From contig CAZUNO010000012.1 of assembly GCA_964621445.1 (NCBI GenBank), forward strand, positions 1 through 64,000: a stretch of 64,000 nt of DNA, in the 5' to 3' direction. This document shows, in pieces, positions 39,423-44,770 of this stretch. How positions within the stretch are numbered: position 1 is the first letter of the stretch; each line of letters opens with the position of its first letter. The position numbers and the translations under genes are program-made. The notes below the pieces were generated by a model, which ran no database searches, was not told where the DNA came from, and saw nothing but the letters and a program-made list of their open reading frames with translations. Source of the DNA: Candidatus Hadarchaeota archaeon (GTDB lineage Archaea; CAYQAE01; CAYVLA01).

Positions 39423-40397
39423 ATGGTAACAAAAAACAGCCCAAATGATTCCTCCTTAAGCCTGAATGAAAAGGCCATGACCCTGGTTCAAAGACTTGTG
39501 GATAATGCCGCATATTACAAAGTTGAGATATCCCGTCTAAAGGATGGATCTACCCTCATAGATGGAGGTTTGGAGGGTCAGGGAGGGCTGAGAGCCGGGG
39601 AATTAATTGCGGAGATATCCATGGGAGGGCTAGGTTCGGTCGATCTCACCCGTTTGGATCTATTCGACCAGAAGTTCCCGGGCGTATATGTTTCTACCGA
39701 TCACCCGCTGCTTTCCTGCCTTCTTTCACAGCTAGCAGGCTGGTCCATCAAGGTTGGTAAATTTCGTGCGCTGGGATCCGGGCCTGCCCGAGCCCTGGCC
39801 CAAACCGAAGCAGTTTTCGATGAATACAGCTATCATGATGACCATTCGGAGGGCGTGCTGATCCTGGAGACCTCAAAAAAGCCCTCCCACAAGGTATCTA
39901 CATATGTCAGCAAGAAATGCAAAATCGACCCCAAGGACCTCTATATCGTGATTACCCCAACCTCAAGCCCCGCAGGAAACCTGCAGATCTGCTCCAGAAT
40001 CGTGGAGACCGGGATCCACAAGATGAACGAGCTGGATATCGACATCGGCATGATCCGATCGGGCATAGGTTCTTGCCCACTTCCCCCGCTCTGCAAAAAT
40101 GACCTCACCATGATGGGCAGGACCAACGATGCAATTCTCTACGGCGGTATTACCCATTACCAATCCCTCGCCAGCTTGGCAAGGGACAAAATTGAATCCA
40201 TCCCCTCCTGCTCATCCCCGGATTATGGGAAGCCCTTCGAGGAGCTATTCAAGGCCGCAGGTGGGGATTTCTACAAACTCGATCAGGGGTTATTCAGCCC
40301 GGCCCTGGTCCAGATAAACGATCTAGAAGAGGGAAGTTTTGACTCATCTGGCCTCGTAAACGAGGAGGTTCTGAAGGAGTCCTTCGACATCACCTAG
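39423..40397 (+). CDS. mch: Methenyltetrahydromethanopterin cyclohydrolase
   Basis: SLNEKA, SQLAGW, GSGPARAL, RIVETGIHK, MGRTNDAILYGG, SSPDYGKPF, DFYKLD. Confidence 0.95.
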   Translation: MVTKNSPNDSSLSLNEKAMTLVQRLVDNAAYYKVEISRLKDGSTLIDGGLEGQGGLRAGELIAEISMGGLGSVDLTRLDLFDQKFPGVYVSTDHPLLSCLLSQLAGWSIKVGKFRALGSGPARALAQTEAVFDEYSYHDDHSEGVLILETSKKPSHKVSTYVSKKCKIDPKDLYIVITPTSSPAGNLQICSRIVETGIHKMNELDIDIGMIRSGIGSCPLPPLCKNDLTMMGRTNDAILYGGITHYQSLASLARDKIESIPSCSSPDYGKPFEELFKAAGGDFYKLDQGLFSPALVQINDLEEGSFDSSGLVNEEVLKESFDIT

Positions 40398-42045
40398 CAA
40401 CCTCAATAGCCCGTTGCAGTATATCGCTGACCGCTTCATTACCAAGTGCACTTACCAGCGGGCCAAACCTCGGGCCAGATTTCTTTTTCAGCACCAACCG
40501 GTAGAGGATTCGGAACATCCTTCCTGGTTTAACTCCATGATTCTTGGCTTCGCTAAAAATCGTGGACTGGATCTCGCCCGGTCCTGGGGAGGAGCGGATA
40601 CAGGAATTTATCCTCTCTAGGGCTGAAATTTCATTCTCAGAGAGCTGGGAAACGAAATCGCGGTCCGGAACCTCGGCTAATGTGAGAGCCTGATCGGGGA
40701 CATATGATTCCACCCAGCGAAGGCCGAACTGCAACCTCCTTCTTATGAACTCAACATCCTCACCGCTAAGTTCCTCACCGATTATACCCGATCTCTGAAG
40801 AGTTTCAAGTGCCTCCTGGATCTGGGTTTCCGGGTCGTATATCTGGGCAATTAATGAAGCGAAGGAGAAATCCACCATGGCAGGTCTCTTATCAGGGATA
40901 TCGCCGAGTTGCGAAATCTCATACAATCTGCTCATATGAGCTCTTTCTCGTTCATTTGAGGGAACCGTTATCCCGTAGTAGACATCGGCGTGGCGGTCAT
41001 AATCGGAATAGAGCCTGGGTAGACCGCGCCAGGTAAAGCTTCTGGTCTTCATTAACTTCTTGTTATAGAGAAAACGGAGTAGTTCCGGGGGAGCAACCTG
41101 CAGCCACTGGGATGGATAAACCACATTGCCAACTGATGCGCTCATCTTCTCTCCATCGATCATTAGATGCTCGTAGAAGAATGGCTCGGGCATGGGGTAA
41201 TCGAGTATTCGTTCCACGATCTCCCCGTTAACCCACCATGCGCTGGTTGGAACCTCGTACTCCTTTCCGCCACCTTCACAGGCCACGTTCCAGCGAGCCC
41301 ATTCACTGGCCCATTCTCCCTTCCAAAGTAGCTTGCCCTCGTCACTAGTGGCCTCCGCCTCCCCGATATATCCACAGCCACGGGCCGTGGTCTTTTCGAA
41401 GTCGTAATCCCTGCACTCGTATCTTACCTTCGTACCACGTAATTCAATTATTCGGGGGGTAATTATCTTTCCGCACTTGCTGCAGATCGGTTTCCAGGGG
41501 CTCCAGGTTTTAGAAAGTTCCGAATCCCGGTACTTACCCAGGATTTCCTTTACCTCGTCCACTTTTTGAAGGATACTCCTTATGTATGAGCTGAAAAAAC
41601 CCTTCTTGTACTGCTCACGCATGGAGAAGATATCCATCTCGTTGGACACGAATTTGTGAATAACGTCGAGGTATTCTTCCTGATGGTGCTCCGCGTAGGA
41701 TTGATGGCATCCCTGCGGGTCGGGAACATCGGTAACCGGTTTTCCAAGATAATCCTCATATTCCTTGGGAACCCCCCTTGGTATCTTTCTAAGAGGATCC
41801 ATATCCTCAGCTACCCAGATCATCCTGGCATCTACCCCTGCATCCTCCAGAGCTGTAACCACGGAATCCGCCCGAATGGTATCGCTAAGGCGTCCTATGT
41901 GGAGCACCCCTGATAGAGAGGCTGAGGATTTAACCACATACAGGTCCCTCTTCTCGACTGGCTTGTCCAGGAAATGAAAGCTACTTCTTTGAATTATGTC
42001 TGCGGCCTTCTGATCGGCCCAGAAGAGTGATTCCTCCATAAACAC
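40390..42045 (-). CDS. lysS: Lysine--tRNA ligase class I
   Basis: FWADQKA, SGVLHIG, DMDPLRKIP, GKLLWK.EW, KMSASVGN, GPRFG. Confidence 0.95.
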   Translation of the reverse strand: MFMEESLFWADQKAADIIQRSSFHFLDKPVEKRDLYVVKSSASLSGVLHIGRLSDTIRADSVVTALEDAGVDARMIWVAEDMDPLRKIPRGVPKEYEDYLGKPVTDVPDPQGCHQSYAEHHQEEYLDVIHKFVSNEMDIFSMREQYKKGFFSSYIRSILQKVDEVKEILGKYRDSELSKTWSPWKPICSKCGKIITPRIIELRGTKVRYECRDYDFEKTTARGCGYIGEAEATSDEGKLLWKGEWASEWARWNVACEGGGKEYEVPTSAWWVNGEIVERILDYPMPEPFFYEHLMIDGEKMSASVGNVVYPSQWLQVAPPELLRFLYNKKLMKTRSFTWRGLPRLYSDYDRHADVYYGITVPSNERERAHMSRLYEISQLGDIPDKRPAMVDFSFASLIAQIYDPETQIQEALETLQRSGIIGEELSGEDVEFIRRRLQFGLRWVESYVPDQALTLAEVPDRDFVSQLSENEISALERINSCIRSSPGPGEIQSTIFSEAKNHGVKPGRMFRILYRLVLKKKSGPRFGPLVSALGNEAVSDILQRAIEVAR

Positions 42046-42073
42046 ACCAAAAATACTAGTCGCGGGTCCAAGA

Positions 42074-42265
42074 TGCCGTTCGCCCCGGTTTTTACCGGTG
42101 GAGCGGGGTTCGAACCCGCGACTTCCGTCTCAAATGAGACTCCGGATGTCCCAGTGACATGGCCGGTGAACCTATACTCGGTCTCCGTGCCCTAAGGTCT
42201 CCTATGAGTCCGGCGCGCTCTCCGGTCGAACCTTGAGGTTCGATAACCGGCTGCGCCATCCCGGC
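42074..42265 (-). tRNA. tRNA-Met(CAU), elongator, interrupted by four introns
   Basis: Exons 42265-42245, 42219-42203, 42147-42140, 42122-42100 and 42078-42074 join into a 74-nt cloverleaf: GCCGGGA/TCCCGGC acceptor, GCGC D-stem, CCGGA-CTCATAA-TCCGG anticodon arm, GCGGG-TTCGAAC-CCCGC T arm. TATA-like TTTATAT about 30 nt upstream. Confidence 0.88.
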
Positions 42266-42338
42266 ATAGGTTCTCTGACGCGATGCCGGAAAAACGCATA
42301 TAAATATATCTGCATATTCACCTTCCACGAGGTTCATT

Positions 42339-44695: not shown

Positions 44696-44770
44696 AGCGA
44701 GGTGGGGCAGCCAGGAGTGCCCGACGGGCTCATAACCCGTAGGTCAGTGGTTCAAATCCACTCCTCGCTA
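44696..44770 (+). tRNA. Initiator tRNA-Met(CAU), intronless
   Basis: AGCGAGG/CCTCGCT acceptor with A1-U72, G11-C24, three G-C pairs in the anticodon stem (GGG-CTCATAA-CCC), TTCAAAT T-loop; CCA not encoded. Confidence 0.96.

Follow-up and report, generated by a model that had tools for sequence, protein, structure and literature searches.

The window, by which we mean the whole 64,000-nucleotide stretch of DNA that was analysed, carries on its minus strand a tRNA-Met(CAT) gene modelled as five exons and four introns, followed by a short trailer, a T-run and lysK, the gene for a class I lysyl-tRNA synthetase (Table 1). The acceptor 5' strand GCCGGGA, U8 and the D-stem open the gene, and a T-arm, GCGGG UUCGAAC CCCGC, lies near its 3' end. 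The predicted mature tRNA is 74 nt long, with G1-C72 and A73, and its CCA is not encoded. With all four introns taken out of the sequence, ARAGORN drew a 74-nt tRNA-Met with perfect stems of 7, 4, 5 and 5 bp. An earlier note on this DNA had described the last of the introns and had missed that the gene holds four.

Table 1. Features of the tRNA-Met(CAT) locus (positions in the window) and the two EndA genes of the genome. Column counts are from the alignment of four genomes.
Feature	Position	Strand	Description
TATA-like box TTTATAT	42298..42304	-	33-39 nt upstream of tRNA position 1; candidate promoter element, read from sequence
Pre-tRNA-Met(CAT), whole gene	42074..42265	-	192 nt; 5 exons and 4 introns
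Exon 1	42245..42265	-	positions 1-20a: acceptor 5' strand, D-stem 5' strand, most of D-loop; 16/21 columns invariant
Intron 1	42220..42244	-	25 nt; D-loop, 20a/21 in our own numbering; HBh' class; H 4/4, h' 8 bp, no h (BHB scoring)
Exon 2	42203..42219	-	A21, D-stem 3' strand, anticodon stem 5' strand, C32-A37, anticodon CAT; 17/17 columns invariant
Intron 2	42148..42202	-	55 nt; canonical position 37/38; hBH class; H 4/4 CUCA/UGGG, h = anticodon stem, 5 bp
Exon 3	42140..42147	-	A38, anticodon stem 3' strand, A44, G45; 8/8 columns invariant
Intron 3	42123..42139	-	17 nt; variable loop, 45/46; relaxed BHB; H 3/4, h' 4 bp
Exon 4	42100..42122	-	G46-C48, T-arm, U66 C67 C68; 22/23 columns invariant
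Intron 4	42079..42099	-	21 nt; 68/69, acceptor 3' strand; strict hBHBh'
Exon 5	42074..42078	-	5 nt: C69 G70 G71 C72 A73; 5/5 columns invariant
Trailer anti-T-arm strand	42058..42071	-	UUGGACCCGCGACU; just 5' of the T5 run; 14 bp here, 12-bp conserved core
T5 run	42049..42053	-	3' of the trailer strand; likely archaeal oligo-T terminator, function inferred from sequence
lysK	40390..42036	-	class I lysyl-tRNA synthetase; PF01921, E 3.5e-97
EndA, 507 aa	G000:C9:29229-29699, locus L029:520-2043	+	putative epsilon type
EndA, 373 aa	G000:C2:82920-83723, locus L028:1468-2589	-	two units

The gene model and the other CAT tRNAs

The first three introns differ in how closely their motifs follow the strict bulge-helix-bulge (BHB) pattern. 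For the D-loop intron an alternative register, 42243..42221, likewise yields a cloverleaf. Relatives show a CG-to-GC double change in its central helix (in G002, a genome of the same family) and four pairs of its inner helix changed on both sides, and these compensatory changes lead us to favour 42244..42220. In the intron at the canonical position, the alignment has U33-A in place of U33-G in 2 orthologs. The third intron borrows the anticodon-stem 3' strand for its central helix; its stem and flanks are invariant in 7 sequences and its loop is variable. Its motif is relaxed, with three of four central pairs, which counts against the model. The T-run beyond the trailer is present in 9 of 9 orthologs. 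We also considered a leader sequence, TCCGGCA (42284..42290, minus strand). It comes close to the acceptor 3' end (UCCCGGCA), and pairing between it and the 5' acceptor strand, which is left without a partner, would be feasible; the element was dropped because it is at most weakly conserved in relatives.

Standard gene finders did not return this gene. ARAGORN made no call for it, either in the window or on the isolated 192 nt, and it is absent both from the Rfam matches in the window and from the 38 whole-genome Rfam tRNA matches. Since the gene is invisible to ARAGORN and to the Rfam model, annotations would report the genome as having no elongator tRNA-Met.

The genome yielded three CAT tRNAs. 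The initiator tRNA-Met, at 44696..44770 of the window (plus strand; contig C12), lies 2.4 kb from the four-intron gene, has no intron and shows A1-U72 and three G-C pairs in its anticodon stem. Another, at C13:80034-80129, has one intron, in the variable region, and shares its acceptor stem with tRNA-Ile(GAT), which identifies it as Ile2. With the other two CAT genes assigned in this way, the gene at 42265..42074 is the elongator tRNA-Met; compared by these same features, it has the CAT anticodon and G1-C72 and is neither the initiator, marked by A1-U72 and G29-31:C39-41, nor Ile2, marked by the acceptor stem of tRNA-Ile. An anticodon-arm pattern matched exactly once in each genome of the family, and a match with 2 mismatches, at G000:C8:16237, proved not to be a tRNA. 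This genome is 96% complete and so could hold a second tRNA-Met copy; the same picture was obtained in G001 and G003, two genomes of the family that are 99-100% complete. Because it is the only elongator tRNA-Met gene found, the gene is predicted to depend on splicing. A recognisable T-arm followed by a contiguous 8-nt tail was seen in 35 of the 38 Rfam tRNA matches, and judged by this check of T-arm and tail, none of the detected tRNA genes other than tRNA-Met has its acceptor 3' strand interrupted by an intron.

The intron at 68/69

Read 5' to 3', the end of the gene consists of CCCGC (61-65), T66, C67 and C68, then the 21-nt intron, then CGGCA (69-73). In the motif at 42099..42079 all four pairs of the central helix are formed, C63 G64 C65 U66 pairing with GGCG and including one G-U. 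The outer helix has 2 bp (C61-C62 with G70-G71), the inner helix 5 bp (CCGGU/ACCGG), and the bulges are CC^A and AA^C. With h of 2 bp and h' of 5 bp the motif is a strict hBHBh', for which h and h' are each at least 2 bp long. Removal of the intron restores a canonical tRNA in which all stems are perfect, and the product is close to the uninterrupted 3' end of the tRNA-Met of G004, the one genome of the neighbouring family. The earlier note had proposed a strict BHB intron at 68/69 that leaves a last exon of 5 nt (CGGCA) plus trailer, and BHB scoring and ARAGORN recovered exactly this arrangement.

By itself, the BHB motif is within chance. The real 250-nt region contained 238 BHB-like candidates, 11 of them strict, and a shuffled region (n = 1) contained 260, again with 11 strict. 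We enumerated all sets of up to four non-overlapping BHB-like candidates, 1,248,717 in number, and scored the products by strict cloverleaf rules (perfect stems of 7/4/5/5, U8 and U33), which replaced an ARAGORN-based enumeration that was too permissive (5,760 calls). Two of the 1,248,717 sets gave a strict cloverleaf; both were tRNA-Met(CAT) and both required 42099..42079. The two solutions also share 42202..42148 and 42139..42123, and differ in the register of the D-loop intron alone. One shuffle gave 0 cloverleaf solutions (n = 1), with a rough random expectation of ~0.1 per region. The enumeration is supportive, and not decisive by itself. The restored tRNA-Met also shows G18 G19, the T-loop UUCGAAC and A73, none of which the enumeration demanded. 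What goes beyond chance is the combination of introns taken together with the ARAGORN drawing and with conservation in 8 other orthologs.

All four introns are kept in these 8 orthologs, which come from three genomes of the same family (G001, G002 and G003, with one ortholog each, 76-87% identical) and from five metagenome contigs. The pattern scan of metagenome contigs returned 40 loci, among which 5 were true orthologs scoring 91.5-92.8 bits and the remaining matches scored at most 26 bits. Across the four genomes, invariant columns make up 68 of 74 in the exons, 70 of 129 in the introns, 6 of 26 in the leader and 9 of 33 in the trailer. A DNA contig from a second study keeps intron 4 with a single loop change, at 42092. 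Over 7 distinct sequences the loop of intron 4 ranges from 4 to 12 nt in length and varies in sequence, the BHB pairs are unbroken, and the closing pair of h' covaries as UA, UG and CG. We consider it highly probable that 42099..42079 is a real intron, which is predicted to be spliced.

A covariance model of the 3' domain scored 85-98 bits in the four genomes of the family and at most 26.4 bits in the other 147 genomes; being sequence-specific, this model would overlook introns at 68/69 in other tRNAs. Nine alignments and six sequences from the lower-scoring matches were inspected and rejected, each showing an ordinary tRNA with a further tRNA or unrelated sequence behind it. No second copy of intron 4 was found in the genome, where the single match to its hairpin followed by GGCGAA is the intron itself. 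The other 23 matches to GGGGCGAAC are unrelated, except for a vaguely similar intron end in a tRNA-Leu (C6:118651). In G004, which is 98% complete, the elongator tRNA-Met has two introns, at ~31/32 and 37/38, and its 3' end is uninterrupted. Because the 68/69 intron is absent there, we take it to be specific to one family, either gained in that family or lost in G004.

The ~31/32 intron of G004 (L077:584-701, minus strand; G004:C105) has a layout like that of the 68/69 intron, a hairpin followed by GGGCGAA, and both introns pair with a CGCC/CGCU exon stretch. It is possibly a relocated intron, on a comparison of very short sequences.

The trailer strand and the order of processing

The trailer strand UUGGACCCGCGACU is complementary to AGUCGCGGGUUCGA (42123..42110), a segment that spans the last base of intron 3, G46-C48, the T-stem 5' strand and U54-A58. 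The 14-bp helix between them is part of the MFE structure of the whole precursor and of that of the 3' domain (z ~-4.9), and 0 of 200 shuffles were as good. Among 34 tRNA genes, tRNA-Met has the longest helix between body and trailer, the other 33 having 10 bp or fewer. When the trailer helix, h, H and h' are considered as one structure, 160 of 161 cells are paired over the 7 distinct sequences, compared with 30-48% for slid partners. Seven of the 12 conserved pairs of the trailer helix never vary and one is unpaired in one sequence. The remaining four vary on the trailer side only, and always in a way that keeps the pairing (U-A/U-G, G-C/G-U). Trailer columns outside the helix show free variation and indels. 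A double compensatory change is not possible in this helix, since its tRNA side is fixed by tRNA function. A column-shuffle control was uninformative, as 143-258 of 500 shuffles reached the observed values. The 7 sequences are close kin. The G004 ortholog, which is without the 68/69 intron, has no trailer complement, and the link between trailer helix and intron rests on this one intron-less outgroup.

The folding energies bear on what the trailer strand could do. In a nearest-neighbour model, the conformer with the T-arm plus the intron hairpin has -16.5 kcal/mol, the BHB alone -11.1 kcal/mol, and the BHB plus trailer helix -33.7 kcal/mol. The T-arm and the BHB are mutually exclusive, because the exon half of the BHB uses positions 61-66, that is, the T-stem 3' strand and U66. 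Without the trailer the T-arm is favoured over the BHB by 5.4 kcal/mol, whereas with the trailer the BHB-compatible fold wins. The earlier note had held that the acceptor and T stems cannot fold until the intron is removed, and that splicing must accordingly precede RNase P, RNase Z and CCA addition. Its interpretation was right in kind and overstated on folding. T-arm and BHB do exclude each other, but folding of the T-arm is possible, and when the trailer is left out the T-arm is the more stable of the two by the margin just given. What we retain of the processing order is that splicing precedes 3' trimming and CCA addition, and we argue this from the conserved strand in the trailer that stabilises the BHB. 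After all four splices the trailer helix, at -43.5 kcal/mol, still beats the cloverleaf, at -35.9 kcal/mol, in the same model, and for this reason it could be a folding trap.

Shorter body complements, of 7-10 bp and of the type CCGGAYA..GG, occur in the trailers of three other tRNA genes of the genome, at G000:C85:173-250 (minus strand), C45:5941-6025 (plus strand) and C15:2241-2324 (plus strand), which ARAGORN calls Pro and Phe. They could be additional helper strands or represent a different type of hairpin.

The best explanation as a whole, and one that we hold with good confidence, is that the 68/69 intron is a strict-BHB intron, that the trailer strand acts as a helper and tether, and that splicing comes before 3' trimming. 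The strict hBHBh' motif would present the 21-nt intron to the splicing endonuclease. By pairing with the T-stem 5' strand and the T-loop, the trailer strand would shift the 3' domain from the T-arm to the BHB; once cleavage had taken place, it would keep the 5-nt last exon tethered to the body so that the two can be ligated, a role that we infer because this exon would otherwise hang by two base pairs. Splicing at 68/69 would precede 3' trimming and CCA addition, and once the trailer had been removed the T-arm and the acceptor stem would form. Taken part by part, the conserved trailer helix probably assists removal of the last intron, and the case that the trailer strand has a helper or tether function stands evenly balanced. 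A tentative form of the proposal, to which we give somewhat less weight, is a built-in chaperone or splint, in which a surrogate T-stem 3' strand in the trailer would unfold the T-arm and hold the 5-nt exon, 3' trimming would be obligatorily late, and the device could be coupled to the 5' end of the lysK mRNA. With lysK ~35 nt downstream, maturation of tRNA-Met could be coupled to formation of that 5' end.

The position of lysK also opens a different account of the trailer. From tRNA position 73 to the lysK ATG the distance is ~35 nt, and from the T-run it is ~12 nt; lysK is directly downstream in 8 of 8 other intron-bearing loci (9 of 9 with this locus) and absent from the G004 locus. An SD-like GGTG precedes lysK, and space for a separate TATA box is lacking. 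Given this spacing, the GGTG and the missing room for a TATA box, the trailer is probably also the lysK leader; tRNA-Met and lysK may be co-transcribed. The trailer may thus be conserved for lysK expression, or because it derives from a tRNA 3' end that was once duplicated. On that view the intron would be an ordinary BHB intron, remarkable for nothing but its rare position, and the trailer complement would be conserved as a terminator or processing hairpin, as the lysK 5' untranslated region, or as a decayed integration copy. The constant proximity of lysK and its SD-like GGTG in all nine intron-bearing loci fit such an account, and read in direct orientation the trailer strand is similar to the T-loop plus the 3' strand of the T-stem. 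Direct repeats of this kind are left behind when elements integrate at tRNA 3' ends (PMC3293823). The cloverleaf of the spliced product would moreover face competition from a trailer helix, and EndA may bind and remodel the BHB unaided. Against it, every change on the trailer side keeps the pairing with the T-arm strand in the midst of columns that vary freely and take indels, and a comparable helix was found in 0 of the 33 other tRNA genes. Without the helix, the BHB is 5.4 kcal/mol below the T-arm in stability and the 5-nt exon is held by 2 bp; further, the G004 ortholog lacks the intron and the helix alike. We regard the ordinary-intron account as unlikely.

The remaining two explanations concern the intron itself. 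Integrating elements typically have their att sites at tRNA 3' ends, and the idea that introns protect these ends, the Randau-Soll hypothesis, is in print (PMC3293823, PMC3488258). The earlier note had raised the same idea, in suggesting that the intron would break an integrase target. Applied here, the intron would exist to destroy the attachment site at the tRNA 3' end and so shield the gene from integrating elements, which suits the interruption of the sole tRNA-Met gene at a typical att site. This hypothesis accounts for persistence of the intron and not for the mechanism, and it is compatible with the helper-strand explanation; as an explanation in its place we find it improbable. Retention of the 21 nt, as an extra acceptor-stem hairpin in the mature tRNA or in a decaying pseudogene, is hardly credible: a cloverleaf could in principle form with acceptor pairs 1-4 and 5-7 flanking the inserted hairpin, but this is the only elongator tRNA-Met gene found, its exons are nearly invariant, the BHB pairs hold in 7 distinct sequences across loops of 4 to 12 nt, a strict EndA substrate motif is accompanied by EndA genes, and RNase P, RNase Z, the CCA enzyme, MetRS and EF-1alpha would all be hampered in recognising a tRNA with an insertion in its acceptor stem.

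This gene indicates that a tRNA can accommodate a BHB intron very close to its 3' end, within the strand that has to be recognised by RNase Z, the CCA enzyme and the synthetase, even where the cell cannot dispense with the gene. If our preferred explanation, splicing assisted by the trailer strand, is true, the surrogate strand in the trailer would be a simple RNA device that explains tolerance of the intron and at the same time fixes the order of processing.

Splicing endonucleases, an intron-rich genome and known systems

A splicing endonuclease is encoded in this genome, in the form of two EndA paralogs. Residues 125-507 of the 507-aa protein match the full-length ARMAN-2 epsilon2 EndA (4FZ2) at E 4.6e-74, a likeness in sequence. 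Two things set the present genome apart from that system: the protein has ~120 extra N-terminal residues, with a weak Sen54-N-like match, and a second EndA of 373 aa and two units is present. The C-terminal half of this 373-aa paralog is most like crenarchaeal catalytic alpha subunits. We know of no description of two fused-type EndAs in one genome. The epsilon2 type is defined by a three-unit protomer (alphaN, alpha, betaC) and a lysine in its specificity loop. The ARMAN-2 enzyme cleaves BHB motifs, whether strict or relaxed, at non-canonical positions (PMC3488258), and the EndA set found here would fit a lineage that tolerates HBh' and relaxed motifs.

Long tRNA genes are common in this genome, whose phylum is represented by 5 species genomes in the collection searched. 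A contig search with its LysRS, from which records of its own family were left out, gave matches to distant archaea alone, at 49-61% identity. The Rfam tRNA matches exceed 80 nt in 30 of 38 cases here (class II tRNAs included) and in 22 of 30 in G004, and about 14 expected anticodons were not found in the 96%-complete genome. At least one other multi-intron gene escaped both ARAGORN and Rfam, a tRNA-Ser(GCU)-like gene at G000:C2:53320-53460 (minus strand) that has three BHB introns and a probable long variable arm. In G004, an intron-containing gene at L087:1500-1601 (minus strand; G004:C2) is labelled tRNA-Pyl(CTA) by ARAGORN, and is most likely a misparsed multi-intron tRNA. As the phylum of this genome differs from that of every other family sampled, it is apparently a further intron-rich lineage that has not been described. 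It would be the third intron-rich archaeal lineage with an epsilon-type EndA, beside Thermoproteales and some Asgard classes.

As an archaeal BHB intron, the 68/69 intron belongs to a familiar class, and BHB introns occur at many non-canonical positions, among them the "aminoacyl stem" (Hirata 2011, PMC3241643, citing Marck and Grosjean 2003). In the literature searched, where the reviews we met carried no intron-position table, we found no printed example at 68/69, nor, in the same literature, a printed trailer-assisted BHB. The closest relatives are the non-canonical BHB introns of Thermoproteales and other archaea (Sugahara 2007/2008, Fujishima 2010, through the accounts in PMC4033280, PMC4090602 and PMC4390854). 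In common with these are the short intron, the two 3-nt bulges, the 4-bp helix, an exon that forms half of the motif, several introns per gene and an encoded EndA of predicted broad specificity. The present case differs from them, as those accounts present them, in its position at 68/69, five bases from the 3' end, in having four introns where their maximum is three, and in a BHB that draws on the 3' strand of the T-stem and goes together with a trailer strand that is conserved.

An archaeal maximum of three introns per tRNA gene is stated in PMC4033280, PMC4390854 and PMC8450103. Up to five per gene are reported for some Asgard families (2026 preprint, 10.64898/2026.10.13.758758), so four introns are not a record. 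In Asgard families 92-95% of tRNA genes are interrupted (PMC11291895). The genome studied here resembles these intron-rich families in that most tRNA genes are interrupted, many positions are non-canonical and software misses many of the genes; unlike the main text of the Asgard papers, which is without acceptor 3'-strand introns or trailer elements, it presents both.

In split tRNA genes, complementary flanks beside the BHB, later discarded, hold the two pieces together for EndA and ligase. The trailer helix would likewise hold the 5-nt exon, by functional analogy with the split tRNA genes of Nanoarchaeum equitans and Caldivirga (PMC4033280, PMC4390854, PMC3218864). It differs from them in that a single transcript is involved, and in that the helper strand pairs with mature tRNA sequence and not with a discarded flank.
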